A DNA stretch of 32,000 bases from Candidatus Saccharimonadota bacterium (lineage in GTDB: Archaea > Nanohalarchaeota > Nanosalinia > Nanosalinales > Nanosalinaceae). How positions within the stretch are numbered: position 1 is the first letter of the stretch; each line of letters starts with the position of its first letter. Of the stretch, positions 1 to 32,000 are shown piece after piece. Both the position numbers and the translations under genes were made by a program. The notes below the pieces were generated by a model. That model was not told the origin of the DNA, did no database searches, and saw only the letters and a program-made list of their open reading frames with translations. The DNA lies in contig CP012986.1 in NCBI GenBank assembly GCA_001761425.1, positions 150,001 through 182,000 of the forward strand. The letters are read 5' to 3'.

Positions 1-958
1 AGAAGTAGAGGATCACGCAGATTCTGTCGAAGAGGACAGGATGGGCAATCTTGTCGCCAGAAAAGGAGATGGTGATGAAACCTTGATGATCGCAGCTCAT
101 ATGGATCAGATAGGCCTTGCTGTTAAAGATGTGGATGAGAACGGCTTTATCAGGTTTTCAAAGATTGGAGGCATTACGCTTCAGTCCTTGATGAATCAGA
201 GGGTTACTATCCATACTGAGACTGGCAGAGTTACCGGTGTTTTGGGTATGAAGCCCCCACATCTTATGGATAAGGAAAACAGGGATAAGTTGCCTGAGAA
301 AGAACAGCTTTTCATCGATATCGGTGCTGAAGACGATGAAGAGGTCGATGAGCTTGGTGTAAACGTCGGTGATACTATAACGTTCGAGAGAGATGCAAAG
401 GATCTTCAAAACGATTATATTACAGGCCTTGCGCTTGATAACCGTGTTGGAGTAGCTGTAGCGATCAAAGTACTGGAGGAATATGAAGCGGATACAGAGC
501 TTGCTGTTGTCTTTTCCACACAGGAAGAAGTCGGTTTGAAGGGCGCAAAGACTGCTGCTTTCAATGTCAGTCCGGATGCTGCACTAGCTGTTGATGTCTC
601 GATCGCGGGGGATGTTCCTGGTATCGAGCCTACTGAGACAAAGCTCGGTACGGGAGAAGGTGTTGACCTCCAGATGGTCCAGAGCTCTGGCAGAGGCCTT
701 ATCACTCCTGAGACGGTCAGGAACTGGCTTGTCGAGACTGCGGAGGAAGGCGATCATGAGTACATCCGTACAGTTATGGAGGGCGGGGCCACCGATGCAG
801 CAAAGATAGAGCTAGTTAAGGAAGGAATCCCTACAGGGTCGATCGGAGTGCCTATGAGACACATGCATTCCTCCACGGAAGTCGTTAAAATGTCAGATGT
901 CAAGGCCACAGCAGAGTTCGTGACCGACGCCGCTGAATCATTCGGCGAAAAATTCTAG
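1..958 (+). CDS. M42-family metallo-aminopeptidase (FrvX/TET-like), 5'-truncated by the window edge
   Basis: The frame is open to nt 2 upstream of the listed Met (…EVEDHADSVEEDR-MGNL…), so the N-terminus lies off-window. M42 hallmarks are present: AHMDQIG, LDNRVG, FSTQEEVGLKGA, AVDVS, HSSTE. Confidence 0.8.
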   Translation, partial: EVEDHADSVEEDRMGNLVARKGDGDETLMIAAHMDQIGLAVKDVDENGFIRFSKIGGITLQSLMNQRVTIHTETGRVTGVLGMKPPHLMDKENRDKLPEKEQLFIDIGAEDDEEVDELGVNVGDTITFERDAKDLQNDYITGLALDNRVGVAVAIKVLEEYEADTELAVVFSTQEEVGLKGAKTAAFNVSPDAALAVDVSIAGDVPGIEPTETKLGTGEGVDLQMVQSSGRGLITPETVRNWLVETAEEGDHEYIRTVMEGGATDAAKIELVKEGIPTGSIGVPMRHMHSSTEVVKMSDVKATAEFVTDAAESFGEKF

Positions 959-982
959 AGGCCTCACATTTTCCTTTATTTT

Positions 983-2188
983 TTATTCGTATCTGAGTGC
1001 TTCTGCTGGTTCAAGGCCTGCTGCTCTTCTCGCCGGTAAAACTCCTGAGATAATCCCTAGTACGAGGGAGAAGACCAGACTGCCCAGTAGAAGGTCGAGG
1101 CCGAGGTAGGGCCTTATTGCGAGGGCTGTGAACTGTGAGGCACCGATTGATGCGGTCCAGGAGAGCGTTACTCCCAGTATGAGGCCTGTTATTCCTCCGA
1201 GGAGGCCTACTGCTCCTGATTCCAGGAGGAAGAGGGCCATTATCTGCCTGTTTTTTGCGCCGATGGCTTTCATGACTCCGATCTCTCTTGTTCTCTGGCT
1301 TACTGAGGTGTACATTGAGTTCATGATGCCTACTGCTCCTACGAAAAGGGATATGGATGCGATTCCTATGACTACTCCTCTTACGACGTCTAGTATGCCC
1401 TGGAATGAGGCGACGAGATCCTCCTGGGTGGATACTGTGAAAGTTTCCTCGCCTTCTTCTGTGCCTCTGCGGTTTCTTATCTGTTTTTCTACGTCTTCTT
1501 TTACTTCTCCTGGTTCGAATCCTTCGTCTGCTTCTCCGAAGAGCCAGTCATAGTTTTCAGGCCTATCCATGAGGTCTCTGGACGAGCTGAGGGTCATTAT
1601 GACTGCTGTATCTATTGAAGGGTCTCCTGTAGGTTCGAGGACTCCGACCGCTCTGTGTTTGACATCATCTACATTGATGTTTGATCTTACACCCAGTTCT
1701 TCATCGAAGACCTGGTCTGCGACTCTGCTTCCCAGGACGATGTTGTACCTGTCGTTTTCACGTATCATCCTTCCTTCTCCAATCTCCATCGCCCAGCTCT
1801 CCATGACAAGGTCTATGTTCTCGTTCGCCGGGATACCTATCACCGGTAAAAATTCGGTCTGCTCTCCGACACTGACACCGGTGTTCATGAAAAGTGCTCC
1901 TTCGGCTCTTGAAATCCCGCGGGTTGAACGCATAGCCTCTAAATCCTGATCTGTCAACGGTTTTGCTTCTTCCCCTCCAGAGGTCAGGCTTCCGCCCGGA
2001 TTGACAAATATCTTGTTTCCGCCAATACTCTGGAACTCCTGCTGTATCGAAGATTCAAGGCCCTGTCCCAGCGAGACTAGAGCTACGACAGCTGAGATAC
2101 CGATGAATATACCTATCACTGTCAGCACAGTCCTCCTCTTCCTCCGGAAGATATTCCGGTAACTCATTTTCACGTACTCTTCTATCAT
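983..2188 (-). CDS. ABC transporter permease, MacB/FtsX family
   Basis: N-terminal TM, large extracytoplasmic domain and a C-terminal FtsX-type TM bundle (GIMNSMYTSVSQRTREIGVMKAIGA). Paralogous to the upstream 401-aa gene. ATGA start/stop overlap at 2185-2188. Confidence 0.8.
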   Translation of the reverse strand: MIEEYVKMSYRNIFRRKRRTVLTVIGIFIGISAVVALVSLGQGLESSIQQEFQSIGGNKIFVNPGGSLTSGGEEAKPLTDQDLEAMRSTRGISRAEGALFMNTGVSVGEQTEFLPVIGIPANENIDLVMESWAMEIGEGRMIRENDRYNIVLGSRVADQVFDEELGVRSNINVDDVKHRAVGVLEPTGDPSIDTAVIMTLSSSRDLMDRPENYDWLFGEADEGFEPGEVKEDVEKQIRNRRGTEEGEETFTVSTQEDLVASFQGILDVVRGVVIGIASISLFVGAVGIMNSMYTSVSQRTREIGVMKAIGAKNRQIMALFLLESGAVGLLGGITGLILGVTLSWTASIGASQFTALAIRPYLGLDLLLGSLVFSLVLGIISGVLPARRAAGLEPAEALRYE

Positions 2189-3390
2189 TTCTCGTACCTC
2201 AAGGCCTCCACAGGATTCATTTTAGCTGCTTTTCGCGCAGGGAAGAAACCGGAGACAGTACCCACAACAAAAGCAAATGCCAGGGAACCGAAGATCAGCT
2301 CCGGACTGGCACCTGGTTCCATAGGAAGGCCTACCTGCTCAGAGATAATACCTGAAGCACCGTAGCTGATAGCCAGGCCTCCGATTACTCCGAGCAATCC
2401 TCCGATAAGGCCTATCATTCCGCTTTCTATAAGGAAGATTCTCAGTATCTGCCAGTTTGTGGCTCCTACGGCTTTCATCACTCCTATCTCCTTGGTTCTT
2501 TCCGTAACAGAAGTGTACATTGTGTTCATGATGCCTACTCCTCCGACCAGAAGTGAGATAGCTCCAAGGCCTACAAGAAATCCTCTGATAAGAGCTAGCT
2601 GGCTCGTGAAAGAATCGATGATATCTGAAGCGGTGTTTGTAGTAAAGTCTTCTTCTCCTTCTTCAAGGCCTCTGCTTCTTCTGAGCTCTTCTCTTATATT
2701 TCCCTCGACTTCTGAAGGCGTGAATCCTCCGCTGATTCTTGCTGTTATCTCATCGTATTCGTCTTCTTTCCCTGTAAGTTCTCTCGCCTGGTCTGTTTCC
2801 ATGTAGATGGAGCCTCCAGGCCTTCCGGAGGCTTCTACTATCCCTACTACTCTGTATTCTGTCCCGTTTATGTCCAGTTTGTTTCTGAGCGTGATTTCGT
2901 CTTCAAATGCGTTTTCTGCTGCGTTTTCTGTCAGTACAATGCTGTAGGTGTCCGTGTTGCGGATGAATCTTCCTTTCGTTGTTTCAAGGCCGTTCGTCTC
3001 CTGTATGAGGGATGATCTCTCTCCGCCGGGAAGGCCTGTTATTGAGAGGTAGCTGGTTTCCTGGCTGTATCTGACCTGTTTTCTGGCTGAGATGGTTCCT
3101 AGGGCCTGTTCTACTCCTCTGCTGTTTCTTACTGTTTGGAGGCTGTCTTCTGTCAGTTTGGCGGTGCTTGAGGTGAAGCTTGATGCTATGCTGTTTCCTC
3201 CAGGTGATATGTAGACTTTGTCTCCTCCGAGTTCCTGGAATTCTGACTGTACGGAGTTTTGAAGGCCTTGGCCGATGGATATGAGTGCGACTATGGCAAG
3301 TATGCCTACGAGTGTGCCGAGGATGGTGAGCCAGGAACGTTTTTTCCTGTATCTTATGTTCCTGGCTGCTAGTCTGAAGGAGTCGAGCAT
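2185..3390 (-). CDS. ABC transporter permease, MacB/FtsX family (paralog)
   Basis: Same architecture and length (401 aa) as 983-2188. Motif GIMNTMYTSVTERTKEIGVMKAVGA. C-terminus …PVEALRYEK matches …PAEALRYE of its neighbour. Confidence 0.8.
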   Translation of the reverse strand: MLDSFRLAARNIRYRKKRSWLTILGTLVGILAIVALISIGQGLQNSVQSEFQELGGDKVYISPGGNSIASSFTSSTAKLTEDSLQTVRNSRGVEQALGTISARKQVRYSQETSYLSITGLPGGERSSLIQETNGLETTKGRFIRNTDTYSIVLTENAAENAFEDEITLRNKLDINGTEYRVVGIVEASGRPGGSIYMETDQARELTGKEDEYDEITARISGGFTPSEVEGNIREELRRSRGLEEGEEDFTTNTASDIIDSFTSQLALIRGFLVGLGAISLLVGGVGIMNTMYTSVTERTKEIGVMKAVGATNWQILRIFLIESGMIGLIGGLLGVIGGLAISYGASGIISEQVGLPMEPGASPELIFGSLAFAFVVGTVSGFFPARKAAKMNPVEALRYEK

Positions 3391-3414
3391 CGGTCTGTCT
3401 GAGGCCTTGGATGT

Positions 3415-4584
3415 TTATTTTCTCCTTCTCCAGTAGACGATTCCTGCTATGAAGATAATCAGTGCTATGATAGCTGGCAGGATTGGGTTTCCTCCGCTCT
3501 GTGTGTAGAGGCTCTGTTCTTCTGATGTCAGTACGTTGAACTGTGCTTCCTGTGTTTCTGTTTTTTCGTTGCCGTTTTCCTGGTAGGTTATCTCTACCGG
3601 TATCTGTGCTGAGTCGGCTGTTTCGTTTGCGTATACCTCTACTTCTGCTGTCTGGTAGTCGTCTGGGTTCATGTCTCCGAGGTAGACGCTGTTCCCTGAA
3701 AGGATTCTGTATCCGTCAGCTTCCTGTGCGTTGATCTTGACAAAGTTGGCGGTTCCCTCTCCTCTGTTCACTAATCTGAGTGTTACTGTGCCTTTTGCAC
3801 CTGCTGGGATGCCTTCCTCGTTGTTGACTCCTAGTTCGATGTTTGGCTCTCCGCCTACGACTATTCCTGTGCTGTCCTGTTTCTGGAGAGATGCTCCGGC
3901 TTCGTTCTCATAGTTCAGGCTGATAGGAACACTGTAAACTCCGTTTTCCGCTGACCTGCCGATATTGAGGTCGAAGGATATTTCTCTTGTCTGGTCTGGA
4001 GCCATTTCTCCGATCCTTTTGCCGGAGGTTCCTGAAGTGACGATAGGTGTCTGCTCTCCGGGGTTGAGCGAGAGCTCTATGTTTCTGAAGTATGCGTTAG
4101 CAGTGTTTTCCAGAGTCATGTTCATGGTTTTTGTAGTGCCTGAGACCACTTTATCCGGGAACTCAACGTCCTTGATGGTCAGTCCGTCGTCGTCAGCTTT
4201 CAGATCCACGTTCATAAGATGTGTCCGGGAGTTTCCATCTATCCTTGAGATGAATTTCAGCTCTTCCTGTCCCTGTAAGGCGTTCGGATCTACACGTGTC
4301 TGAAGACGGAACTGGTAGGTGTCACCTTCCTCAAGAGAAGCTATCCTCCAGCTCCTGGTATTATCAGGGTCCACAGAGAAAGGATAATTCTCCGCAAATC
4401 TGATAGAAACATTTTCAGCTTCTTCTGTGCCTGTATTCGTCACTTTGAACCTTACATCCGCGTACTGCCCCACTTTCAAAGGGTCTGGCTCAGTACTCAT
4501 CTTCTGAACCTCGACGTTAGGGCTTGCTGCCGCAAAACCTGAGAAAATGATTAGAAATGCCGTGATTGTAGCTAGTCGTTTCAT
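3415..4584 (-). CDS. Secreted, C-terminally anchored protein with repeated CARDB/S-layer-like beta domains (COG1361-like)
   Basis: I place the start at the internal Met (MKRLATITAFLIIFSGFAAA signal peptide, ATG at 4584), 5 nt after the ATPase stop. The listed 430-aa ORF adds a basic extension overlapping the ATPase gene. C-terminal TM plus RRRK (…PAIIALIIFIAGIVYWRRRK). The domain call is by resemblance only. Confidence 0.55.
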   Translation of the reverse strand: MKRLATITAFLIIFSGFAAASPNVEVQKMSTEPDPLKVGQYADVRFKVTNTGTEEAENVSIRFAENYPFSVDPDNTRSWRIASLEEGDTYQFRLQTRVDPNALQGQEELKFISRIDGNSRTHLMNVDLKADDDGLTIKDVEFPDKVVSGTTKTMNMTLENTANAYFRNIELSLNPGEQTPIVTSGTSGKRIGEMAPDQTREISFDLNIGRSAENGVYSVPISLNYENEAGASLQKQDSTGIVVGGEPNIELGVNNEEGIPAGAKGTVTLRLVNRGEGTANFVKINAQEADGYRILSGNSVYLGDMNPDDYQTAEVEVYANETADSAQIPVEITYQENGNEKTETQEAQFNVLTSEEQSLYTQSGGNPILPAIIALIIFIAGIVYWRRRK

Positions 4585-4588
4585 AGTA

Positions 4589-5356: not shown

Positions 5357-5461
5357 GTTAAGGCCTTCCTCTCCGAGGTTTATCAACTCTTCGGAAACAT
5401 TCGATTTTCATGAAATATTCGTGTTTTAATAGTGTTAACCTACTAAATTGGTGGTAGAGCC

Positions 5462-6845: not shown

Positions 6846-6899
6846 ACATTCTTTTAATGCTATGTTCCTAATAAAACGGTGTAAGGTGTCAAACTTAGA

Positions 6900-7176: not shown

Positions 7177-7530
7177 ATGAAAGCTGATTTAGGCCTTGAA
7201 GAGGTAGGAGAAGAGGTTCTTGGGCGAGGATACGAGACGGGAACAGCTGCGGACCCCAGAGTTCCAAGCATCGAATGGGAAAAGAATGTAGGCCTTTACA
7301 GGTTAAAGGTTTACAGTGAGGAGTTTCTCCAGAACGATTCGAGAGCTGTCGCCGGAAATACTCTTGAGGACGTCTTCAAGAAACAGGTCTCGGAGGAAAA
7401 CGATTTCTATGTTGAAGTTGCAGTCCCTACTGATGGTTTGAGGCCTGAAAGAGAGATTTATACTTTTTCGGAGGAAGAGCTTGAACAGGGCCTTAGAGAA
7501 GTAATTGAGGAGTACGCTGAGGATTACTGA
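7177..7530 (+). CDS. Hypothetical acidic protein
   Basis: 117-aa ORF with acidic composition typical of the window. Followed by a T7 run. I recognise no family. Confidence 0.5.
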   Translation: MKADLGLEEVGEEVLGRGYETGTAADPRVPSIEWEKNVGLYRLKVYSEEFLQNDSRAVAGNTLEDVFKKQVSEENDFYVEVAVPTDGLRPEREIYTFSEEELEQGLREVIEEYAEDY

Positions 7531-7585: not shown

Positions 7586-8293
7586 TCAGGATTCCTGGAG
7601 TTTTTCTGCCTTCCTGATCTGTGCTGAGGCGTTTAGCAGCAGGAAATCCAGTTTTTCGGCTTTCTCCATCAGCTCCTGTGAGATTTTTCTGATTTCTTCT
7701 TTCATCTCTTCCAAGCTTCCAACTTTTTCCTCCGTCTCCTTGCTGAGGCCTTTTCTGTTGAATTCTACGGTTTTAAGATATCTTGAGGTGGTTAGAAAAT
7801 GGTGGACGTGTTTTTCCCGGATTTCGTGGAGCAGGTCGTTTTCGATCTCTTTTTCTGTCCTGTTCAGGGCCTTTTCGTCAGGATATTTTCTGAGGCCGGT
7901 CTTCCAGAGGTCTCTGGGTTCGTGTTCTCTGTTTTCCAGAATTTTGACTGTGTTTTCCAGGCATGAGATGGCTGTGCCGTAGGCCTCTGTCAGATGTGTA
8001 TTGTCTTTTTTGCTGTGTTCTGCGTACTTTTTTTCCAGTTTTTCTATTTTTTTCTCTAGCTCTGCTGTTTCAAGGCCTTCTGTGCTGTTTTTGGCTTTTT
8101 CCAGTTTCTTTGTTTTTTTCCTGTAGAATTTCAGTGCTTTGAGGTGTTTTCTTGTTTCTCCCGGGAATCCGGCTTCTGTTACAGCTTTCTTCAGATTTTC
8201 TGTCTCTCCGAGTTCTTCTTCTATTGATTCTCTGTTTTTCTCAATTTCTTTTCTGCAGTGTTCTGTAAGCTCTGATAGTTTTTCTCTGGCCAT
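7586..8293 (-). CDS. Hypothetical Lys/Glu-rich coiled-coil protein
   Basis: 235-aa ORF with an ATG start, helical heptad-like K/E composition and no signal peptide. It lies 14 nt downstream of the 8308-8955 gene, so a likely operon. Confidence 0.55.
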   Translation of the reverse strand: MAREKLSELTEHCRKEIEKNRESIEEELGETENLKKAVTEAGFPGETRKHLKALKFYRKKTKKLEKAKNSTEGLETAELEKKIEKLEKKYAEHSKKDNTHLTEAYGTAISCLENTVKILENREHEPRDLWKTGLRKYPDEKALNRTEKEIENDLLHEIREKHVHHFLTTSRYLKTVEFNRKGLSKETEEKVGSLEEMKEEIRKISQELMEKAEKLDFLLLNASAQIRKAEKLQES

Positions 8294-9693: not shown

Positions 9694-9706
9694 AGGCCTT
9701 TTTTTG
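9694..9706. terminator. AGGCCT plus T7 tract between convergent transcription units
   Basis: AGAAGGCCTTTTTTTG lies between the + frame ending at 9663 and the radA stop at 9708. An A-run (9665-9670) gives oligo-T on the minus strand. Confidence 0.35.
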
Positions 9707-11834: not shown

Positions 11835-12032
11835 CTAGTTCAGGGCGTCTCTTACGTCTTCTGCTCTGACAGTCTTCCTTCCCTTCTCTTCGGCGATTGC
11901 AATTGTTTCCTCGGCGACGTCGCCTGCGAACATTTCCAGGACCTGGCCGAGTTCTTCAGCACCGTCCTCGGAAACTCTCTTGTCTCCCTGAGTCTTGATC
12001 ATATCCTTCATCTTTGCAACGGAAAATTCCAT
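11835..12032 (-). CDS. Archaeal histone (HMf family, single histone fold)
   Basis: 65 aa. …RVSEDGAEELGQVLEMFAGDVAEETIAIAEEKGRKTVRAEDVRDAL matches the archaeal histone fold pattern (RVS…A…GRKT…ED). Confidence 0.85.
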   Translation of the reverse strand: MEFSVAKMKDMIKTQGDKRVSEDGAEELGQVLEMFAGDVAEETIAIAEEKGRKTVRAEDVRDALN

Positions 12033-12180
12033 TTTCTACCACCTGTAAAGACTAACCTGCCCGTATTAATTTAAACAGGCCGGTTACCGCCACCTAACAT
12101 GGTTGACCGCGGGCCTGCGAACATCCGGAAAATTCTTAACGGGGGAAACATAATTACATTGTGGGGGAATTAAAGGGGGA

Positions 12181-17835: not shown

Positions 17836-17916
17836 AATTCTTACAGTGAAAAACCTGTGAAACTACGTGAATCATACAAGACACATGTTTACTGAAGTAA
17901 AGAAAACATCGAGGCC

Positions 17917-18898: not shown

Positions 18899-20710
18899 TT
18901 ATCCTTTCCAGACCGTTGAATTGAAGGATGAGATTATCCTTCTGCGGAAGGCTACTGCCAGGGCTGTGATAAGGCCTAGGACGGCTGTGAATGTTTTCCA
19001 GGTTGTGGCTGAAGAAGAAAATCCTCCTGTAGCTACCTGTCTCTCTCCTTCTATAACCGGTGCGTTAAGGCCTGTCGTCCTCGTGATCTCCTTGGAATCG
19101 CTGTCTCCCTGGACCTCTGCCACGGTTCTGAACGTGTTTTCGCCTTTTCTGATGATCGTATCGAAACATACTTCTCCCGAAGCGGTTTTCTCTCCTTTTT
19201 TATCCCCGTTGTGATAAAACTCTACGTCGGGTTGTCCCTCGGAAACGACTTCTGGACAGACAGAGATTCTGTTATCGGCCTCAGTGTTTGAAGAAGTGGT
19301 GATGGAGGTTATAGAGACGGTAGGCGTTACTTCAAGAGTTACAGTGTTTTCAAGGCCTTCCGATTTTGCTTTCACCTGTTTTTTACCTACTGTTTCAGGC
19401 CTTATCGTCCATTCGTATTCTCCTTCGTCGCTGGTCTGTGTCTGGCCTACTGTTCTTTCATCGAGGATTATTTCTACTTCTTTGTCCGTGTTTCTGTCTC
19501 CTTCGAGTTTTCCGGAGATCTTTGTGGATTCTCCTATCTGTATCGTGTTTCTTTCCAGGTTTGCTGTTATCTGGTCGGGTGTGAGGGCATCTATTATGCC
19601 GGTGAAAAATCCTCCGCTGTCTGAGCTACTGGAACTTCCTTGGTTGTCCGTGTCATCGTCGCTTTCTCCTGGTGATGAGTCTCCGGTATCTTCGTCTTCA
19701 TCGCTGTTGTCGTCTTCGCTGTTGTCATTGTCTCCGTCCTGATCGTTGTCAGATGAGTCATCGTTATCGTTTTCGGAGTCGTCGTTATCTGTGCTGTCGT
19801 CCTCTTGTTCGTTGTTTTCCTCCTCTGTTCCGTCGTCGTTTTCAGCTGTTTCGTTGTTCCATCCTTCATCATTCTCGGCGGTTTCATTGTCCCATCCTTC
19901 ATCGTTTTCGGCAGTATCGTTATCCCAGGATCCGTCGTCATTATCTGCTGTTCCGTCATCCCACTGTTCATTGCTTTCCTGTGTTCCATCGTCATTGTTA
20001 TCTGCTGTCTCGTTGTTCCAGGAGCTGTCGTCGTTTTCAGCTGTCTCGTTATCCCACTGTTCATCGTTTTCCGCAGCATCATCCTCGGAGCTTTCAGAAC
20101 CTTCATCGGTTCCTGAAGAAGAGTCTTCACTGCCGTCGTTGTTGTCTGCTGTTCCGTCGTCCCAGGAACTTTCCTGACCTTCTTCCGAATCACCTTCCGA
20201 GGACGAGCTATCGCTGTCACCGTCCTCTGAGTCCGAATCATCTGCTGTACCGCTGTCCCAGTCGGAGTCGGAGGAATCATCTGTGCTTTCCGAGTCATCG
20301 GAACCCGAATCAGAGCCGTCCGAATCATCTGAATTTTCCGAACTATCGGAATCGCCAGTATCAGAACTATCGTCATCGGCAGTTCCGTCATCCCAGTCGG
20401 ATCCGCTGTTGGTGTCCGAACTACTGTCATCAGAGGAGGAATCGTCAGTATCGTCCCCGGCTGTGTCGTCGTCCCAACCAGAATCGGAGGAGCTACTTCC
20501 GTCGTCGTCATCTTCAGCAGTTCCATCGTCCCAGCTGGAATCGGAGGAATCATCTCCTGAGCCTGAATCCCAGCTAGAATCGCTTTCGGAGCTGCCTCCA
20601 TCACTGTCATCTGCTGTACCGCTGTCCCAGGCACCGGAAACAGCAGCCGCTCCAAGGAACAAAGTACAGAAAATTACCAGTCCTATTAACAGCAGTTTAC
20701 GCTCATTCAT
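18899..20710 (-). CDS. Hyper-acidic Asp/Ser-rich surface protein with 13 Trp-Asp repeats, a beta-rich C-terminal region and a C-terminal membrane anchor
   Basis: Signal peptide MNERKLLLIGLVIFCTLFLGAAAVSGA. The repeat W-[DN]-x-x-T-A-[DE]-[DN] occurs 13 times. C-terminal …TGGFSSSATTWKTFTAVLGLITALAVAFRRR…. Confidence 0.7.
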   Translation of the reverse strand: MNERKLLLIGLVIFCTLFLGAAAVSGAWDSGTADDSDGGSSESDSSWDSGSGDDSSDSSWDDGTAEDDDDGSSSSDSGWDDDTAGDDTDDSSSDDSSSDTNSGSDWDDGTADDDSSDTGDSDSSENSDDSDGSDSGSDDSESTDDSSDSDWDSGTADDSDSEDGDSDSSSSEGDSEEGQESSWDDGTADNNDGSEDSSSGTDEGSESSEDDAAENDEQWDNETAENDDSSWNNETADNNDDGTQESNEQWDDGTADNDDGSWDNDTAENDEGWDNETAENDEGWNNETAENDDGTEEENNEQEDDSTDNDDSENDNDDSSDNDQDGDNDNSEDDNSDEDEDTGDSSPGESDDDTDNQGSSSSSDSGGFFTGIIDALTPDQITANLERNTIQIGESTKISGKLEGDRNTDKEVEIILDERTVGQTQTSDEGEYEWTIRPETVGKKQVKAKSEGLENTVTLEVTPTVSITSITTSSNTEADNRISVCPEVVSEGQPDVEFYHNGDKKGEKTASGEVCFDTIIRKGENTFRTVAEVQGDSDSKEITRTTGLNAPVIEGERQVATGGFSSSATTWKTFTAVLGLITALAVAFRRRIISSFNSTVWKG

Positions 20711-20722
20711 TGAGTTCTAACC

Positions 20723-21052
20723 TCAGTTAGCTTCTTCTCTGATATCCTCATACAGGTCATCTGTGTCGTACCCGAACTCGTTCCCCGGAAAGGTCCTCGA
20801 AACTCTTTGACGCTCATTAATCCCTACAATCGCATCCTCCTGCAAGTACCAGTCAGCACCGGTACCCAGTTCTTGGTATTCTTCTTCGTCTATGATGTTG
20901 GCCCAGCCGTCTGAGTCGTAGTCTTCCAGTAGTTCATCTGTCACCTGGTATCCCTCTCCCTCTACAGGACCGGGTACAGCCTGAAGCTCGTAACCGCTTC
21001 CGTCTATCTCTCCACTGTAACTTTCCTCTGTACCTGTCTGAGTATCGGTAGG
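20723..21052 (-). repeat. Copy B of the ~330-bp dispersed direct repeat
   Basis: See copy A. The offset is 4,922 bp with no indels across the C-terminal domain. Confidence 0.8.
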
Positions 21053-21499
21053 GCTTTCAGTACCGGTTTCGGTTTCTGTAGGCCTTTCAGTGGATGTCTC
21101 TGTATCTGGTTCCTCGGTGTTGGTGTCTGTAGGCCTTTCTGTTTCTGCGGGAGTATCTGAACCTGGCTCTCCGCCTGGTGTGGAGCCGTCCTGAGAGCTT
21201 TTGTTGCCCAGGAAGCCTGCTAGAGGCCCTCTGGAGTCTTCGCTTAGATTGCCGTCCAGTTCGCCGTCTGAGTATTTGTCCGCGATGGCTCCTGTTCCAA
21301 GGCCTGCTCCGAGGACGCTGATGCCCTGGACAACTTTTCTGCGGTCCTGGTTGATGCTGCCGTCATTTTCTGTAACGCCTGTGGCGTCGTAGATTGCATC
21401 TCTGGGCCTGGTATAGGCTTTCTTCAGGGCTCCTGAGGCTTTGCTGAATCCGTTTTCAAGGCCTTTGCGGACGCCTGAAAATCTTTGCCCGCTGCTCAT
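20723..21499 (-). CDS. Membrane/secreted protein, paralog B
   Basis: Same architecture as 15798-16625 (…QDRRKVVQGISVLGAGLGTGAIADKYSDGELDGN…, TE/TP linker, conserved C-terminal domain). ATG at 21499 is preferred. The listed GTG at 21508 is an alternative. It lies 12 nt upstream of the 603-aa gene. Confidence 0.6.
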   Translation of the reverse strand: MSSGQRFSGVRKGLENGFSKASGALKKAYTRPRDAIYDATGVTENDGSINQDRRKVVQGISVLGAGLGTGAIADKYSDGELDGNLSEDSRGPLAGFLGNKSSQDGSTPGGEPGSDTPAETERPTDTNTEEPDTETSTERPTETETGTESPTDTQTGTEESYSGEIDGSGYELQAVPGPVEGEGYQVTDELLEDYDSDGWANIIDEEEYQELGTGADWYLQEDAIVGINERQRVSRTFPGNEFGYDTDDLYEDIREEAN

Positions 21500-21591
21500 T
21501 TCTGACACCTGGAGGAGGCTTCCTGAGGTTTTGAGGCCTTTACAGGGCTTTTACCGGTGTTGTCAACTCTTCTGGGTGTTTGAAAGTTCAT
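21496..21591 (-). other. 31-codon upstream ORF whose TGA overlaps the paralog B ATG (ATGA); likely a remnant of a deleted 385-aa-type gene
   Basis: MNFQTPRRVDNTGKSPVKASKPQEASSRCQK. Its ATG sits in the same position relative to the duplicated upstream element as the ATG of 16632-17789. Confidence 0.3.
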
Positions 21592-21637
21592 TGCTGGTTC
21601 TCGACCTGTTAAACTGAGGTAGGCCTTATCTAAAACC
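21589..21637 (-). promoter_or_regulatory. Upstream element with a TATA-like box, copy B
   Basis: An ungapped alignment to 17787-17835 gives 35 of 47 identical positions. The TTTTAGATA box at 21627-21635 abuts the stop codon of the signal peptidase gene. Confidence 0.45.
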
Positions 21638-22365: not shown

Positions 22366-23283
22366 TCAGTGTTTTTTCTTTTTCTCGTGTTTTTCTTTGT
22401 CTTTGGACTTTTCTCCTTCGTCCTTTTTACTGTCTTTCTCTTCTTTCTTGTCTGTGCTGGTTTTGTTTTCTTTACTTGATTTTTCCTTTGTCTTCTTGGA
22501 TTTCTCTACTTCTTTTTCGCTGTGTTCGTAGGATTTATTGCTTTCCTTTTCTTCGTAGTCTTTCTTGCTTTCTTTGTCTTTGCTTGTTTCTTTCTTGGAC
22601 TTTTCGGTTTCTTTCTTTTCTTCCTTGTCTTTGTCGTAGTTTTTACTGTCTGAATTTTCTTCTTTCTTCTTTTTTTCGTCGTAGCTTGTCTCTGAGCTGT
22701 CTTTTGTCTTGTTCTTTTCCTTGTAGCTTTCGTCTTTTTTCTGTTTTTCGCTCTGTGACTCGCTACTCTTTTTATGGTCTTTGTAGTCTCTTTTGTAGTC
22801 TACACTGTACTCTACGGATCCTTTCTGAAGATGTTCGTTTGAGGATTCGTATTTTTCCTTGTACATCTGAGTTTTCTCTTTCTGGTTGATGTACTTCTGT
22901 CTGAACTCTTCTTTCTTCTCTTTTTCTTCTTCGTAGAGTTTCTTGTACTCTTCAGAGTTTTTGTCTACGGTCTTGGAGAGGTTCTTGTAATGCTTCATCT
23001 TGCTCTCCATCTTATCCAGTTTGCTTTCCAGGTCGGAAGACTCTTTCTTCTCTTTCTCGTACTTCTGTTTGTATTTCTGAGTCTCTTCCCTCTTGTTCTC
23101 TAACTCTTTTTCCATGGAATCCATCTTCTTCTCCATCTCTACCATCTTTTTCTCGTAATCGGAGCTATCCTTATCTCCGCTGAAGGTATCCCAGCTATTA
23201 TTGGTCGCTGCAACGGTCCCTATACCGGTAACCGAAGCAATCAGGCCAATAGTGATTAAAGAGATCAAAATTTCCCGGTTCAT
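22366..23283 (-). CDS. Secreted Lys/Glu/Ser-rich low-complexity protein
   Basis: I place the start at ATG 23283 (MNREILISLITIGLIASVTGIGTVAA…), 8 nt after a GGAGGTGA Shine-Dalgarno. The listed GTG at 23295 lies inside that SD. The rest is K/E/S-rich and probably coiled. Confidence 0.6.
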   Translation of the reverse strand: MNREILISLITIGLIASVTGIGTVAATNNSWDTFSGDKDSSDYEKKMVEMEKKMDSMEKELENKREETQKYKQKYEKEKKESSDLESKLDKMESKMKHYKNLSKTVDKNSEEYKKLYEEEKEKKEEFRQKYINQKEKTQMYKEKYESSNEHLQKGSVEYSVDYKRDYKDHKKSSESQSEKQKKDESYKEKNKTKDSSETSYDEKKKKEENSDSKNYDKDKEEKKETEKSKKETSKDKESKKDYEEKESNKSYEHSEKEVEKSKKTKEKSSKENKTSTDKKEEKDSKKDEGEKSKDKEKHEKKKKH

Positions 23284-23291
23284 AACTAAAT

Positions 23292-25169: not shown

Positions 25170-25177
25170 AACAGGGA

Positions 25178-25207
25178 ATTAATAGGAGTGCTTAAAAAGT
25201 TATTAAT
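25178..25207. promoter_or_regulatory. 7-bp inverted repeat ATTAATA-N16-TATTAAT in the divergent nikR-like/ZIP promoter region
   Basis: The arms at 25178-25184 and 25201-25207 are perfect reverse complements with a 16-nt spacer. Each arm also sits about 27-37 nt from one of the two start codons, so they could be TATA boxes. Confidence 0.35.
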
Positions 25208-25219
25208 CAAGTGGTGTGT

Positions 25220-25954
25220 ATGGTAATTGGAACTACGCTAATAGCGCTTTTTGCCACAACACTGCTTTCAGGCCTTGGAGCACTGTTTCTGGGCCTCAGC
25301 GAAGAAAGAACGGATGAACTAACACCTTACCTTGTATCTCTATCCGCAGGAACGATATTTGGAGGAGTCTTCATACATCTCGTGTTCAAACTGGCCAATA
25401 AACTAGGTTACACACGGGAAACAGGTCTTTTAGTCCTTGGAGGCATGTTCCTGTCACTGTTGCTGGAGAGGCTGGTCCACTGGCACTGTCACAACCAGGA
25501 TCATCACGTCGAGGCCTTCTCCTACGTCCTTCTGGCGGGAGACGCGGTTCACAACGTCCTCGATGGTATTCTGGTAGCATCAAGCTTTCTGGCGGGCTTT
25601 CCGGCAGGAATAGCAGCAACTATCGGAGTCATGCTGCACAAAGTTCCAAAAGAAGCTGGGGACTTCGGTGTACTTGTACAGAGCGGATTCTCAAGACTCA
25701 AAGCGATCGGATTTAACATAGGGGTAAGCCTGTTCATGTTCGCAGGTGCAGGGATTGTACTGGGCCTTGCATCGGTAGCAGGAAACGTCAACCTGTACCT
25801 GCTGCCTCTGGTGATCGGAAACTTCGTCTACATCGCAGGAAGCGACCTCTTACCGCGGTTCAAGGCTGAAGATAATCTCATGCTGCACTCGATAATGTTT
25901 TCGACAGGTGTAGCAGTCATGTACGCAGTACCTTACGTCAAAGGCCTGATATAG
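25220..25954 (+). CDS. ZIP-family divalent metal transporter (ZupT-like)
   Basis: Multi-TM protein. HNVLDGILVASSF and HKVPKEAGDFGVL match ZIP signature helices. His-rich loop HWHCHNQDHH. ATG at 25220 is preferred over the GTG at 25211. Confidence 0.8.
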   Translation: MVIGTTLIALFATTLLSGLGALFLGLSEERTDELTPYLVSLSAGTIFGGVFIHLVFKLANKLGYTRETGLLVLGGMFLSLLLERLVHWHCHNQDHHVEAFSYVLLAGDAVHNVLDGILVASSFLAGFPAGIAATIGVMLHKVPKEAGDFGVLVQSGFSRLKAIGFNIGVSLFMFAGAGIVLGLASVAGNVNLYLLPLVIGNFVYIAGSDLLPRFKAEDNLMLHSIMFSTGVAVMYAVPYVKGLI

Positions 25955-25958
25955 GCCT

Positions 25959-25970
25959 TCTACGTTTTTT
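25959..25970 (+). terminator. Oligo-T tract after the ZIP gene
   Basis: …TAGGCCTTCTACGTTTTTTC. A T6 run follows two AGGCCT copies (25942-25947, 25953-25958) that flank the stop. Confidence 0.4.
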
Positions 25971-26054
25971 CTCTGTGAGACAATCTCATCACAGGACTTT
26001 AATCCGCAGAAAAATACCAGATGGAGAGTAGAGGCCCGGATAAGGTTCTGGTTT

Positions 26055-27128
26055 CTAGATAAAGTCTTTTACGGTCTCGAAGAAGGATTTGTCTGTTTTT
26101 TTCTCTTTTTTGTGTTTTTCAAAGATTTCCTCGTCTTCCTCGCTGACATCTTCTGGTATTTCGACATCCAGTTTTACGAAGAGGTCGCCGTAGCCTCTTC
26201 TTCCGGGCATGCCTTTTCCAGAGAGACGCAGGACCTGGCCGGGCTGTGCGCCTTCGGGAACGGTCACGCTGTAGGTTCCTGATGGTGCGTCTATCTCGGC
26301 TTCTGCGCCCAGTACTGCGTCTCCGAGGCCTAAGTCAAGGGTGGTGAACAGGTCTGAATCACGTCTTTCGAACTCTTTGCTTGCCTCTACGGTTACGAAG
26401 ATATACAGGTCGCCTGGACGACCTTTCTTTGAGGCGTTGCCTTTACGTTCAATTCTAACTTTCTGGCCGTCTCTTACTCCTTCAGGAATATCTACTGTGA
26501 TTTGTTCTTCTTTCTCTACAAGGCCTTTGCCGCTGCATTTGCTGCATTTTTCATCTGGTATCTCTCCTGTTCCGTTACATTCCTGGCATTCCTGTACTGT
26601 CTGTGCTCTTCCCAGAGGTGTTCTCTCAATCTTCTGTACACGGCCTTCTCCGTCGCAGTTGGAACAGGTTGTAGTATCTCCGTTTTCAGCTCCTGTGCCG
26701 TTACAGGCCTCGCATTCATGCTTCCTCGAGACTTCAAAAGTCTTTTCTACGCCTTTGTAGGCCTCTTCCAGTGTTATCCTGGTCTGTATCTTCAGATTCG
26801 CGCCTTTTTGCTGTCTTCTTTTTCTTCTGCGTCCGCCGCCTCCGAAGATCTGTTCGAAGATATCCTGGAAGTTTGAAGCTGCTCTGCGTTTGCCTCTACC
26901 GGCGTGGCCTTCAACTCCCTGTTTTCCGAACTGGTCGTACTTCTTCCTCTTATCCTCATCGGAGAGAACATCGTAGGCCTTGTTAATCTTTTTGAACTTT
27001 TCCTCGTCCGCTGTATCGCTGTTGGAATCAGGATGGTATTTTTTCGCCTTTTTCCTGTAGGCTTTCTTGATTTCGTCTTGGCTTGCGTCTTCGTTTACGC
27101 CTAGAGTTCTGTAGTATTCTTTGGTCAT
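26055..27128 (-). CDS. dnaJ: Chaperone DnaJ (Hsp40, type I)
   Basis: J domain with HPD, a Gly-rich linker and four CxxCxGxG motifs ([32 protein letters not shown]). Confidence 0.95.
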
Positions 27129-27162
27129 GGTTTTTTATTCTTCTGTTGGTCGTGTGCTGATT

Positions 27163-27348
27163 ATGGATTTTTTTGAACTCGAAGATCTTGAGGAAGACAG
27201 GAAATTCTGGGTGCTTGTAATCGGTTTCAGCTTCGGCTCAGGTCTTCTCCAGCTTATTCTTGGTGAATCCTTGATGGCTATCACGGCCTTTGGAGCCGCT
27301 GGCATCCTGGCGATTTTAGCCCATCAGAAACTGGATGGAGAGGCCTGA
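27163..27348 (+). CDS. Candidate small two-TM membrane protein, antisense-oriented between dnaK and dnaJ
   Basis: MDFFELEDLEEDRKFWVLVIGFSFGSGLLQLILGESLMAITAFGAAGILAILAHQKLDGEA. It fills the 230-nt dnaK-dnaJ spacer. There is no homology evidence. Confidence 0.3.
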   Translation: MDFFELEDLEEDRKFWVLVIGFSFGSGLLQLILGESLMAITAFGAAGILAILAHQKLDGEA

Positions 27349-27358
27349 AAACAGGCCT

Positions 27359-29275
27359 TTACTCTTCTTCGTCCTCTGTGTCTACTTCTTCGTAGTCTGC
27401 GTCGACTACTTCGTCTTCTCCACCTTGCTGTGGGCCTCCGCCCATGTTCATGTTCTGTGCGGCTTGTTTGAGGTCTTCTTCGCTCATGTTGGATGGATCG
27501 AAGCCGCCCATTCCTCCTGGGCCTTCTCCGTCGTACATTTCCTGGCCGATCTCCTGAAGCTTCTCTTCAAGATCTTCGATTGCTTCTTCGATTTCCTCCT
27601 TTGCTTCTTCAAGGTCGTCGGCGTCTTCCGTATCTTCTCTTACTTCTTCAAGGCCTTTGACAGCTTCCTGTACTTCTTCGATGACTTCTTTGTCCAGTTC
27701 GTCTTCGAAGTTGTCGAGTTGGCTCTCTGCCTGGTTGACCATGGAATCCGCCTTGTTCTGGGCCTCGATGAACTCTCTTTTCAGTTTGTCTTCTTCCTCG
27801 TGTTTCTCTGCTTCTTCCTTCATATCTTCGATTTCATCGTCGTCGAGGCGGGAAGCGTCGTCTATACTGATTGAGGCCTCTTCTCCGCTCTGTTGTTCTT
27901 CCGCTGAGACCTGGAGGATTCCGTCGGAGTCGATTTCGAACGTTACTTCGATCTGTGGCTGTCCTGCGGGAGCTGGTGGAAGGCCTTGCAGGTTGAACTG
28001 GCCTAGGGACTTGTTGTCTTTTGCCATTTCTCTTTCTCCCTGTACTACGTGGACTGTGACCATTGTCTGGTTGTCCTGTGCTGTCGTGAAGGTCTTGGAT
28101 TCTTCAGCAGGGATCGTGGTGTTTTCTTCGATTAGTGTCTCTGTGAGGCCTCCCTTTACTTCTACGCCCAGTGAGAGAGGTGCTACGTCGAGTAGCAGGA
28201 TGTCGTCCATATCTCCACTGATGCTTCCTGCCTGGATTGCTGCTCCGTCTGCTACTGCTTCTGCAGGGTTGATTTCCTGGTTAGGTTTCTGGCCTGTGAT
28301 GGCCTGTACGTGTTCACGGACTGCTGGGACTCTTGTGGTTCCTCCGACGAGGATGACTTCGTCGATCGCTGATTTGTCGACTCCTGCGTCTTCGATGGCT
28401 TTTTCTGTAGGATCTGTGGTTTTCTGGATCAGGCCTTCGACGAGTTCTTCGAACCTGGATCTTGTAAGCTCCGTATCTACGTTGTAGGTGTCTCCGTCTT
28501 CCTGGTGGATGAACGGGATGTTGATTTTGGTCTTTTTAAGTGAGGAGAGTTCTTTCTTTGCCTCTTCAGCGTTTTCTCTGATTCTCTGCATTGCCTCGTC
28601 GTTTTCTGAGAGGTCGATTTCATTCTCTTCCTCGAATTCTTCAAGTATGTAGTCTACGATCTCTTGGTCGAAATCGTCTCCTCCGAGGTCGTTGATTCCT
28701 TCTGTCGACTGGACTTCGTAGATTCCGTCTCCCATCTCCAGAAGGGTTACGTCGAAAGTTCCTCCTCCGAAGTCGTATACAAGAACAGTCTGATCCTTGT
28801 CATCGTCCAGTCCATAGGCTAAGGAGGCTGCTGTAGGTTCATTCAGGATTCTTTCAACTTCAAGGCCTGCGATCTCTCCAGCGTCCTTTGTCGCCTGCCT
28901 CTGAGTATCATCAAAATGTGCAGGAACTGTAATTACTGCCTTATCGAACTTCTCACCTGTTTTCTCTTCTGCGTCGTTTTTCAGCTTCTGGAGGATCTTC
29001 GCGGAAATTTCCTGTGGAGTATAGTCCTCTCCCTCAAGCTCCACACTGTAATCCTCTCCCATGTGGCGCTTGATAGATTTCACGGTATTTCCCTGGTTCG
29101 TCAGCATCTGGTTCTTTGCCGGCTTACCGACTAGCAGCTCATCGTCGTCGAAAGCAACGACTGAAGGCGTCACACGTTCGCCCTCTACATTTTCAATTAT
29201 CTTTGATTCGCCGTCTTTTACATAAGCCATTGCACTTCTTGTCGTACCAAGGTCGATACCTAGAATCTTTCCCAT
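27359..29275 (-). CDS. dnaK: Chaperone DnaK (Hsp70)
   Basis: [26 protein letters not shown] and an acidic C-terminal tail. Start placed at [12 protein letters not shown] (ATG 29275) rather than the listed 29308. Confidence 0.97.
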
Positions 29276-29367
29276 TTGAACTACACCTGTTTTTACAGAC
29301 AACAACAAAAACTTTTAAACTGAACGCCCGGCCTTAGAATCGATTTAAAACGCCCTGAGAGGCCTCT

Positions 29368-29877
29368 TTATTCTTCCTGTTCTCCTGTTTTCTCGCTGAC
29401 CACTACTTCGGCAGGCCTCAGAACTTTTTCTCCGTACATGTAGCCAGGCCTTTTCTGCTCCAGAATTTTTCTTTCCTCTTCGTGTTCTCGTGTTTCAACG
29501 GCGTTATGGATGTTGGGGTCGAATTCTTCTCCCTGTGCGTCGATCCTCTGAAGGCCTTTTTTCTCCAGGGTCTCATACAGCTGGTCGGAAACCATTTTCA
29601 CTCCCTGTAAAAGTGTGGAATCTTCGTCTGCGGACATGATTGCGCGCTCTAAGTTATCCATGACTGAGATCAGCTCCTGTGCAAGTTTTTCCCGGGCCTG
29701 TTCTTTGTGTCTTTCTTTCCTTTCATCTTCTTTCTTTTTGTAGTTCTCGAAGTCGGCCTTTGCCTTCTTTGCTTTTTCTTCCCATTCTGAAGATTCTTTT
29801 TCTGCTTCGATCGATCTTTTCTCCATTTCCTCTAGTGCTTCGATAAGTTCCTCGCGGGACAGGTTTTCGTAGTTCAT
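29368..29877 (-). CDS. grpE: Nucleotide exchange factor GrpE
   Basis: Coiled N-terminus, FENYKKK…, a GrpE core (…DNLERA…, …GEEFDPNIHNAV…, …GYMYGEKVLRPAEVVV). Lies upstream of dnaK. Confidence 0.9.
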   Translation of the reverse strand: MNYENLSREELIEALEEMEKRSIEAEKESSEWEEKAKKAKADFENYKKKEDERKERHKEQAREKLAQELISVMDNLERAIMSADEDSTLLQGVKMVSDQLYETLEKKGLQRIDAQGEEFDPNIHNAVETREHEEERKILEQKRPGYMYGEKVLRPAEVVVSEKTGEQEE

Positions 29878-29958
29878 ACAGCCGAAAGATAGGCCTTGAA
29901 GTTTTTAATTCGGTACGAAAAACCAGAAACTCTTAACTGTTACCTTCAAGTAGTAACC

Positions 29959-30711: not shown

Positions 30712-30737
30712 TATACTTTCTTTGTTAAGAACTGTTT

Positions 30738-31220
30738 ATGGCTGAAGAGGATCATCCTTTTGCTGATGCTACGGCGCGCAAAACCTCTACAATAGTTACT
30801 AAACACAGTATTGCGGTTCCTGAGGATGAACAGAAGTTCAAGAAGTCGGAGAGAGCATGGAACTGGGAAAAGATTGTCGACCTCATCTTCCCTGAGGAAC
30901 AGTCGCCTAAGCGGAACAGGTATGCGAAGATCTTTCTCCGTGAATTAAAGGATGAAGGCACTATAAACTCGGAGAAGCTGAATGCGTTCGATGAATGGGG
31001 TCATGAAAAAGGAAAATCAAATCTGAAGAACAATATTTTGCCAAAGCTACGTCGTATAGGAATTATACAGTACGAATATATTGAATATCGAGGCGAGAGA
31101 GAAGGTTCTAAAGGCCGTCGCAAAATTATCAAGCCAGCAAAATCTTTTACTTCGATACTGGACTCTATGGCGAACGGTTGGTCTACATTCGAGTCAGCTG
31201 CGTACCAGAATCATGACTAA
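30738..31220 (+). CDS. Hypothetical basic protein, possibly wHTH DNA-binding
   Basis: 160 aa and Lys/Arg-rich, unlike the acidic bulk proteome. …NLKNNILPKLRRIGIIQYEYIEYRG… looks like a recognition helix plus wing. It contains no AGGCCT. Confidence 0.45.
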   Translation: MAEEDHPFADATARKTSTIVTKHSIAVPEDEQKFKKSERAWNWEKIVDLIFPEEQSPKRNRYAKIFLRELKDEGTINSEKLNAFDEWGHEKGKSNLKNNILPKLRRIGIIQYEYIEYRGEREGSKGRRKIIKPAKSFTSILDSMANGWSTFESAAYQNHD

Positions 31221-31339
31221 GGCCTTTCAAATCCGGTTATTTTGTTTTATCGTTATGAGATAGATATCTCTAAGGCCTCTGGACGCTACAGCTTCTCTTT
31301 CAAATTCTTAGAGGGCTGTGGCTGTAACGAGGTTTGCCT

Positions 31340-31800
31340 TTGCCGAGACTTCAGTTTCCTCTCTGCGGTCTTCCTCTGACTGTGCCTGAAGCTCTGTCTC
31401 GAAGTTGCGTGTGTTGGCGTTCATTGTGGTGTTTTACCTCTATGTTTTCGTGTTTTGATCGTCGGGTTGACGCATCCGGGAAGTTTGTATAGGGTCGGAG
31501 GCAGGTTCCACCTTGCAAGCAGAACCTGCCCTGTTGGCCTAGTTCCGTCAAGAGCATAACATGCTCCCTTAACCTCTGTGTCCCATAGAGGCAGAGGAAC
31601 CGGTACCAATCAAATAACCTTGGTATTCACGGTCGGTCGTTGGCCCGTCATTCAGGCCAAGACTTCATCCCGCTTTACTCTGCCAGGAAATAATTAATAA
31701 TGGAGAATGTAGCCTTGGCCTGGTTATGAGTGGGTCTCACCAGATCCATTGACATACACATGTTTCCAGCGGACCATGTAGTATTAACCAAGGCCATTTT
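31340..31800 (+). ncRNA. Candidate structured ncRNA of undetermined class (RNase P RNA or SRP RNA should be tested); strand tentative
   Basis: ORF-poor and locally GC-richer. Consecutive perfect stems at 31345-31400, 31460-31472, 31500-31530 (9 bp), 31552-31566, 31573-31597, 31599-31633 and 31640-31660. There is a long-range stem at 31717-31726/31785-31795. A 10-bp pairing 31440-31449/31703-31712 works only on the + strand because it has 3 G-U pairs. Confidence 0.35.
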
Positions 31801-31842
31801 CGACAAATTGTAATAGCCAGCCCACGTTTAAAAGTCTTCCCT

Positions 31843-32000
31843 TCAATCAAGGTGAGGCTCGAAAATATCTGCTCTCAACCGGTTATGCGTGCGCTCAAGA
31901 AGATCTCTGAGATTCACGGTATCATACTGGTTGTACTCGACCAGTTTACGTAAGGCCTCTTCATCTCCTTCTTTCTCATATTTTTTCCACAGCCTGATAG
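31843..32000 (-). CDS. 3' end of a gene extending past the window; RNase H-like/DnaQ-fold exonuclease C-terminus (YprB/COG3359-like)
   Basis: The minus-strand frame reads …IRLWKKYEKEGDEEALRKLVEYNQYDTVNLRDLLERAHNRLRADIFEPHLD, with the stop at 31843-31845. The YNxxDVxxL-type motif is typical of that family. Resemblance only. Confidence 0.4.
   Translation of the reverse strand, partial: IRLWKKYEKEGDEEALRKLVEYNQYDTVNLRDLLERTHNRLRADIFEPHLD

Follow-up and report, generated by a model that had tools for sequence, protein, structure and literature searches.

Why does one six-base palindrome, AGGCCT, recur about once in every 230 bases of an archaeal chromosome? The stretch in which this was seen, here called the window, comprises 32,000 bases of a 1.125 Mb contig from a nanohaloarchaeon, a member of the DPANN archaea, and with the adjoining DNA 41.5 kb of this genome was read in total. 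Over its first 20.7 kb the window matches the Joint Genome Institute (JGI) metagenome contig 3300010222 Ga0136257_100001 (1.125 Mb) at 100% identity. AGGCCT is a bare DNA word under a genome-wide directional force, which acts wherever sequence constraints allow, fixes synonymous codons at approximately three-quarters of the compatible positions and accompanies amino-acid replacements. The word very probably represents a highly iterated palindrome (HIP)-type element, that is, a drive or selection acting at the level of DNA and varying between lineages, in a subset of the Nanohaloarchaeota.

Abundance and placement of AGGCCT

Exact counting gave 139 copies of AGGCCT in the window (GC content 47.1%), against about 8 expected, an excess of ∼18–20 fold. 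The sequence-only reading of this DNA had estimated about 140 copies and an excess of ∼15–20 fold by eye, and both estimates were accurate. One hundred dinucleotide-preserving shuffles yielded a mean of 7.87 copies (sd 2.89, maximum 16), and the expected range was 6.9–7.9. AGGCCT was the most frequent hexamer of the window, followed by GGCCTT (91 copies) and TTTTTC (90 copies). The tetramer GGCC was found mostly within the hexamer (139 of 225 occurrences, 62%) and variants differing at one outer position were uncommon, with 5–16 copies each, as had also been claimed. In the next 9.2 kb of the contig, to the right of the window, there were 4.6 sites per kb, and extrapolation of the density to 1.125 Mb gives about 4,900 sites.

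Markov models had been suggested as a check on the excess, and the expected count rose with their order, from 7.8 at order 1 to 26 at order 2, 66 at order 3 and 128 at order 4. Orders 1–3 (8–66 copies) upheld the excess. The maximal-order value (128 against 139 observed) was dismissed as a null, as the pentamers AGGCC (160 copies) and GGCCT (180 copies) consist almost entirely of the hexamer itself, which makes such a model uninformative.

Using the gene calls recorded for the contig, 106 sites were located in coding DNA (3.74 per kb, about 17 fold over expectation); outside the recorded calls, gene models were approximated by long open reading frames. The coding sites were read as xxA-GGC-CTx in 56 cases, as xAG-GCC-Txx in 32 and as AGG-CCT in 18, so that x-Gly-Leu accounted for 53% of them, and the phases proposed from the letters alone (mainly x-Gly-Leu, with Arg-Pro and Glu/Lys-Ala as minor phases) were recovered. 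When synonymous codons were shuffled within genes, as had been recommended, 17.1 ± 3.7 copies (maximum 28) were obtained against 97 observed, an excess of ∼5.7 fold above this null. The abundance of Gly-Leu combined with codon bias does not, therefore, account for the excess.

Positions at which the peptide would permit the word were for the most part occupied by it. The word was present at 54 of 71 x-Gly-Leu positions, 27 of 42 [KEQ]-Ala-[FLSYCW] positions and 15 of 22 Arg-Pro positions (64–76%), and with the recorded gene calls at 104 of the 142 compatible positions in the window (about 73%). As most compatible positions are realised, the number of sites per gene is set mainly by the number of compatible peptides. 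The suggestion that a DNA word is tucked into tolerant codons is borne out by its occurrence in all three frames and between genes, at these realised fractions. The realised fraction was lower close to another site: within 30 nt it was 59% for the window and 55% for eight other loci, against ∼75% elsewhere. Interference over longer distances was also considered; it was detected in the window (P = 0.003) and was not replicated in the eight other loci (P = 0.18).

In intergenic DNA (41% GC) there were 29 sites and a further four straddling a gene boundary, corresponding to 7.98 per kb and an enrichment of about 48 fold. Every intergenic coordinate listed in the sequence-only reading was a true AGGCCT site. 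Thirteen of these 33 non-coding sites lay within 12 nt past a stop codon, and at four sites the A or AG of the stop codon itself begins the word (TAA-GGCCT or TAG-GCCT). Consecutive sites were on average 231 nt apart, and the coefficient of variation (CV) of 0.98 is that of a Poisson-like spacing. The locations of the array and of individual sites are as follows.

1–32000, no strand: dispersed array of 139 bare AGGCCT hexamers, with only a weak preference for a purine at −1 and a pyrimidine at +1
959–964: site immediately past the TAG stop of the M42 peptidase gene
9694–9699: intergenic site followed by seven T, one of the five non-coding sites flanked by a T- or A-run
17912–17917: site overlapping a stop as TAA-GGCCT, minus-strand gene 17917–18870
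21621–21626 and 31220–31225: sites overlapping a stop in the TAA-GGCCT arrangement
25953–25958: site overlapping a stop as TAG-GCCT
27341–27358: pair of sites 12 nt apart, at 27341 and 27353, the second abutting the dnaK stop
19403–21079: longest AGGCCT-free stretch (1.68 kb), within and beside the 603-aa gene 18899–20710

The gap at 19403–21079 reflects a scarcity of compatible peptides, as gene 18899–20710 has five compatible positions, four of which are realised.

This flank preference (purine at −1, pyrimidine at +1) held at 76% of sites in the window, at 54–66% in other genomes rich in the word and at 56–62% for control words. The palindrome did not extend past six bases at 100 of the 139 sites and was extended at 39. 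A longer repeat, a repetitive extragenic palindrome (REP), a miniature inverted-repeat transposable element (MITE) or an extended motif was ruled out by the unconserved flanks; the core is the hexamer. The sequence-only reading had further proposed oligo-T terminators and palindromes built of A- and T-runs, and this part was not sustained. Just five of the 33 non-coding sites were flanked by TTT or AAA, a palindrome of 6 bp is too short to fold into a hairpin and, as stated, most sites are unextended; a terminator or hairpin role was rejected. No tRNA and no Rfam match was found in the window.

Distribution and turnover among nanohaloarchaeal relatives

Whether related genomes share the excess was examined in 29 nanohaloarchaeal DnaK loci, each of ∼20 kb around dnaK. 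The answer was divided, as the distribution was bimodal: eight loci carried AGGCCT at 9–23 times expectation, and most of the others were near chance. Values of 15–23 times were found in the window and in loci L001, L009, L012, L019, L021 and L024, and a value of 9 times in L020; these are termed high genomes. NZ_CP180230.1 is among the high genomes. L008 and L011 reached 3.4 times, and the remaining loci, termed low, were at ∼1 times or less. The dnaK of L009 was out of frame in the codon alignment and was left out of the trees and amino-acid tests but kept in the realised fraction for that locus. No other palindrome was comparably enriched in any locus, the low genomes included.

GGCC in which both flanks were wrong occurred at 0.54 times expectation in high genomes, matching the 0.48 times of low genomes, which argues that the excess is specific to the full hexamer. 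Half-sites were also favoured: where Gly-Leu followed a residue that has no NNA codon, high genomes used GGC-CTN 36% of the time and low genomes 10%. L020 (CP046106.1, strain M3_22, 1–21887) was intermediate, with AGGCCN half-sites also at 2.7–4.2 fold and 81% of compatible positions in conserved genes realised; the word could be on its way in or out of this lineage, or its specificity could be relaxed there. Among the low nanohaloarchaeal loci GGCC was under-represented overall (0.64 of expectation), and in most loci TCGA was the most over-represented 4-bp palindrome, with z-scores of up to 15.

In ten orthologous genes the fraction of compatible positions realised was 69–89% in high genomes, 0–29% in low genomes and 31–43% in L008 and L011. 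Pooled, these were 136 of 176 positions (77%) in high genomes and 20 of 223 (9%) in low genomes, an odds ratio of about 34. This synonymous odds ratio and the intergenic enrichment of ∼48 fold are of the same order, which fits a uniform single force. Where the peptide was conserved, low genomes were spread over the synonymous codons while high genomes all spelled AGGCCT. The third position of the CTN codon varies freely among high genomes, and the sites are thus not recently shared or simply inherited blocks of sequence.

Neighbour-joining trees were constructed from 3–4 proteins with the site codons removed. The high locus L019 grouped with the low locus L028, from the metagenome-assembled genome JBEQAY01, at 99% bootstrap support and these two with the high locus L021 (100%); the window grouped with L001 (100%) and L012 with L024 (100%), and deeper nodes were without resolution. 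The nesting of a low locus within a high clade indicates that the trait is labile, and a loss of the excess in L028 would be the parsimonious interpretation of the tree.

Sites were conserved between high genomes at 53–80%, compared with 17–26% for average hexamers, which is three to four times better. Between the window and L009, which belongs to a distant clade, 62% of sites were conserved against 17% of hexamers. From the high L019 to the low L028, only two of 37 sites were kept.

The effect extended to protein sequence. At 30 of 43 site columns in conserved genes, low genomes mostly encoded a peptide incompatible with the word, and compatible peptides per 1,000 codons were about 50% more numerous in high genomes. 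These data show that the word has shaped protein sequence beyond the choice of codons. The chaperone genes of the window are given below with their sites.

26055–27128, minus strand: dnaJ, with five AGGCCT sites (26326, 26521, 26705, 26759 and 26975)
27359–29275, minus strand: dnaK (HSP70), with six AGGCCT sites (27651, 27874, 27981, 28146, 28431 and 28863)
29368–29877, minus strand: grpE, with three AGGCCT sites (29413, 29446 and 29552)

In dnaK all six compatible peptide positions are realised. One dnaJ site encodes E-A-C, where genomes without the excess have x-E-C, and an [EK]-G-L site in grpE was present in seven of seven high genomes and in three of 17 low genomes. Amino-acid replacements common to separate high clades were found in DnaJ and in the product of the gene after grpE. 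At several positions with a derived residue common to L019, L021 and other high clades, L028 has the low-type one (KGK rather than KGL in the gene after grpE, and x-E-C rather than E-A-C in DnaJ); judged from these alignments, either reversion in L028 after loss or convergence among the high lineages could have produced this pattern.

Relative to low genomes, variants differing from AGGCCT at one outer position were in excess by 1.7–3.2 fold, and those differing at an inner position stood at 0.67–1.28 fold. Many strains of this species are present in metagenomes. In a comparison of strains 97.7% identical, 86 of about 94 sites were common and eight differed. Mismatches inside sites numbered seven against 12.4 expected and were mostly C/T; the events were few and without polarity. 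Two strain-variable sites, which together form the pairs AGGCCT/AGATCT and AGGCCT/AAGCTT, were located as follows.

7191–7196 (from alignment column 7484): AGGCCT in the window, AGATCT in two 97.7%-identical strains
about 7715–7720 (alignment column 8008): strain-variable symmetric double transition

Such symmetric changes from one palindrome to another match deamination of cytosine on both strands, and both cases lie in locally divergent stretches.

Candidate explanations and known systems

The closest resemblance is to HIP1 of cyanobacteria. HIP1 (GCGATCGC) is 15–300 fold over-represented, dispersed and conserved, and has been lost or replaced in some lineages (PMC5861425, PMC4390886); its one-off variants concentrate at the outer positions (PMC4390886). 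Among the over-represented words of Synechococcus PCC 6312 is CAGGCCTG, which contains AGGCCT (Xu, Lawrence & Durand 2018, PMC5861425). AGGCCT likewise is a bare short palindrome in coding and non-coding DNA, with a frequency at least 15 times expectation, dispersed copies, conservation above background at orthologous positions, absence from some lineages and variants at the outer positions. It is not HIP1 proper, as the word is not GCGATCGC and the host is archaeal. AGGCCT is a hexamer rather than an octamer, in a DPANN archaeon rather than a cyanobacterium, and its density of 1 per 230 bp is about four times the saturation level of ∼1 per kb discussed by Elhai (PMC4390886). It also stands near saturation of the compatible codons, and it is accompanied by replacements common to high clades.

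The on/off distribution, with a low genome inside a high clade, suggests that the force depends on a factor that can be gained and lost. In the reading we prefer, this lineage-variable factor would be a DNA methyltransferase of StuI specificity, either orphan or carried in a mobile module, and AGGCCT is the recognition site of StuI. Once AGGCCT is methylated, mismatch repair or recombination would tend to favour the strand bearing the site, sites would accumulate to about 1 per 230 bp, and on loss of the factor they would decay by neutral drift. The bias would be of the type proposed by Elhai, where methylation of a site newly arisen on the nascent strand misdirects mismatch repair and so preserves the mutation (PMC4390886). 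Such a ratchet permits any base change and hence predicts the one-off pattern at the outer positions. Alternate HIPs of cyanobacteria co-occur with methyltransferases of matching specificity (PMC4390886). AGGCCT itself is a type II restriction–modification (R-M) recognition sequence, methylated as AgGCcT in Alcanivorax borkumensis SK2 (PMC12128166), and a cultured nanohaloarchaeon has two Dcm-like methyltransferases, one of them with no motif assigned to it, and one detected motif, GDGcHC (PMC11001535, PMC10266531). The whole reading, of a HIP-type palindrome together with a StuI-specificity methyltransferase coupled to biased repair, is held tentatively, at a probability of roughly 0.45.

Several points weigh against it. 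DPANN archaea are not known to carry out methyl-directed mismatch repair. Pfam searches of 30 window proteins, together with the annotations recorded for the flank (41.5 kb in all), identified no methyltransferase, Vsr, MutH-like or relevant nuclease gene, so the search for a StuI-family methyltransferase or endonuclease proposed in the sequence-only reading, as run in this DNA, returned neither. A metagenome scan for a HaeIII-like motif spelled GGA-GGC-CT gave at least 120 matches, none AGGCCT-rich among the matches listed; a protein search with M.HaeIII beyond the window was dominated by close bacterial homologues, with no candidate gene among the matches listed; and viral homologues of the window RPA were sought and none was found. 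C-to-T variants of the word were not depleted relative to low genomes (AGGTCT/AGACCT 0.85, AGGCTT/AAGCCT 1.01). Repair drive, selection on a protein-read site and recombination drive of the uptake type leave nearly identical footprints, and positional conservation fits all of them, because at ∼75% saturation the independent re-creation of sites can mimic it. The comparison rests on one ∼20 kb locus per relative and on trees of a few proteins. Finally, Xu et al. favour selection on function over repair bias for HIP1 (PMC5861425). Besides these searches, regular expressions for methyltransferase motifs were run across all the nanohaloarchaeal loci and found none.

Two systems built on methylated palindromes were compared. 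In Alcanivorax borkumensis SK2 the word is the same and, as a palindromic type II site, carries methylation on both strands, but with 1,674 sites genome-wide (PMC12128166) its density is far below the 4.3 per kb of the window. An active R-M system of the StuI type would also fit poorly. Targets of R-M systems are usually neutral or avoided in the host genome, whereas AGGCCT is 20-fold enriched. The GATC site of Dam/MutH has a similar density (about 1 per 240 bp) and is likewise a palindrome usable on both strands, but it is a tetramer near its chance frequency, and the DNA read gave no evidence of MutH, MutS or MutL.

Alternatively, AGGCCT may be a functional site read by a chromosomal protein, as a strand-discrimination or nicking signal in repair, a loading site for nucleoid or segregation proteins, or an epigenetic mark, with its density kept by selection rather than by a ratchet. 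This is unlikely, though several observations suit it: the word is conserved three to four times better than average hexamers, one site per 230 bp resembles the density of GATC in E. coli, and the lower realisation within 30 nt of a neighbouring site (59% and 55% against ∼75%) hints at diminishing returns. Xu et al. reached the same conclusion for HIP1 (PMC5861425). Selection would, however, be needed on ∼4,900 individually trivial sites in a small genome, and would have to override the protein sequence of chaperones. The longer-range distance effect failed to replicate, the spacing is Poisson-like, and the trait is dispensable, being absent from close relatives.

A DNA uptake sequence, in which the uptake machinery prefers DNA bearing AGGCCT and recombination spreads the sites by molecular drive, is distinctly improbable. 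The footprint is that of the uptake signal sequence (USS) of Haemophilus and the DNA uptake sequence (DUS) of Neisseria, in that abundant and conserved words, capable of drive, occupy tolerant peptides in all frames, are dense between genes and are specific to lineages. Uptake of host DNA has been suggested for nanohaloarchaea (PMC6642349), and RadA and RPA genes are present in the window. The USS and DUS are nevertheless asymmetric, 9–12 nt long and present at ∼1 per kb, often as inverted pairs in terminators, and they need competence machinery. Here an abundant, conserved word was found in tolerant contexts and an oriented, asymmetric motif of 9–12 nt was not; AGGCCT is a palindromic hexamer and a type II enzyme site. 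A 6-mer enriched 20-fold discriminates poorly against foreign DNA, no competence genes were seen in the DNA read, and separate clades use the same word where diverging dialects would be expected.

Very-short-patch repair alone, in which a 5-methylcytosine methyltransferase and a Vsr-like T:G endonuclease would over-correct near-cognate sequences to AGGCCT, is very improbable. The principle is known from Dcm/Vsr at CCWGG in E. coli, where a methyltransferase site is over-represented via biased repair, and the strain differences observed here were mostly C/T transitions, including AGGCCT/AGATCT and AGGCCT/AAGCTT. The effect in E. coli is small, however, and accompanied by depletion of the T-variants, whereas AGGCCT is 20-fold enriched, its T-variants are not depleted (0.85 and 1.01), and most conversions from the codons of low genomes require transversions (GGA to GGC, GCA to GCC).

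A by-product of amino-acid or codon usage, or of terminators, hairpins or a mobile repeat, is hardly tenable: 53% of coding sites are x-Gly-Leu and some intergenic sites adjoin T-runs, but the codon shuffle (17 ± 4 against 97), the intergenic enrichment (∼48 fold), the unconserved flanks, the want of Rfam or tRNA matches and the relatives that encode the same proteins at similar GC content yet realise 9% rather than 77% of compatible positions refute it.

A bolder proposal, which we regard as doubtful, is an undescribed, horizontally mobile archaeal system with AGGCCT as its cis signal, serving either methyl-directed strand discrimination by a StuI-like enzyme pair or as the first archaeal uptake or self-recognition sequence; its molecular drive would rewrite codons across the genome, be accompanied by identical amino-acid replacements in essential chaperones of separate lineages, and switch on and off between sister lineages.

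Genes of the window and significance

The genes of the window are housekeeping genes, encoding M42 and M24 peptidases, a MacB/FtsX ABC transporter, RadA, RPA and a histone, together with LigT, NikR, a ZIP transporter, DnaJ, DnaK and GrpE. The DnaK encoded at 27359–29308 on the minus strand matched solely Nanohaloarchaeota, the best match being a metagenome-assembled genome (MAG) of Ca. Nanohalobium at 90% identity. One gene departs from its surroundings.

22366–23283, minus strand: 305-aa gene, 38% GC, with no AGGCCT, no Pfam match and one unrealised compatible position

The neighbours of this gene have 45–53% GC and 3–8 AGGCCT sites per kb. The gene may have arrived recently, too short a time ago for its composition to match that of its surroundings.

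Two paralogous minus-strand genes at 15798–16625 and 20723–21508 (275 and 261 aa, no Pfam match) were 81–84% identical over ∼365 nt. Two 65-aa histone-fold genes (CBFD_NFYB_HMF) lie ∼20 kb apart, at 11835–12032 of the window and at 11910–12107 of locus L275, and the flank past the window also encodes a family B DNA polymerase and an Ogg-type glycosylase.

When sequences were screened for three clustered AGGCCT sites, a few viral contigs rich in the word emerged. L156 (IMGVR_UViG_3300029432_000018, 1–3639) carried 13 copies in 3.6 kb at 36% GC, about 33 fold over expectation, and L237 (1–10794) carried 22 copies in 10.8 kb at 53% GC and encoded Rep3, ParA, an integrase, a PD-(D/E)XK nuclease and a DnaB-primase. 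The word may thus be iterated also in other organisms or in their mobile elements, as in these viral or plasmid-like contigs.

The literature searched contained nothing linking AGGCCT, StuI or iterated palindromes with nanohaloarchaea or haloarchaea, and as far as that literature shows AGGCCT can be documented as the first HIP-type element in Archaea. HIP1 has been known for some 25 years without agreement on its origin or function, and almost all cyanobacteria carry it, so that clean comparisons are scarce. The same phenomenon is now seen in DPANN genomes of ∼1 Mb, in which sister lineages have it or lack it (L019 and L028), and this on/off pattern means that the factor responsible should be directly findable by gene presence and absence. 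In practice the word can also serve to bin nanohaloarchaeal contigs and to flag DNA of recent acquisition. A drive at the level of DNA that reshapes proteins matters for phylogenetics and for how 'selection' is read in these genomes.

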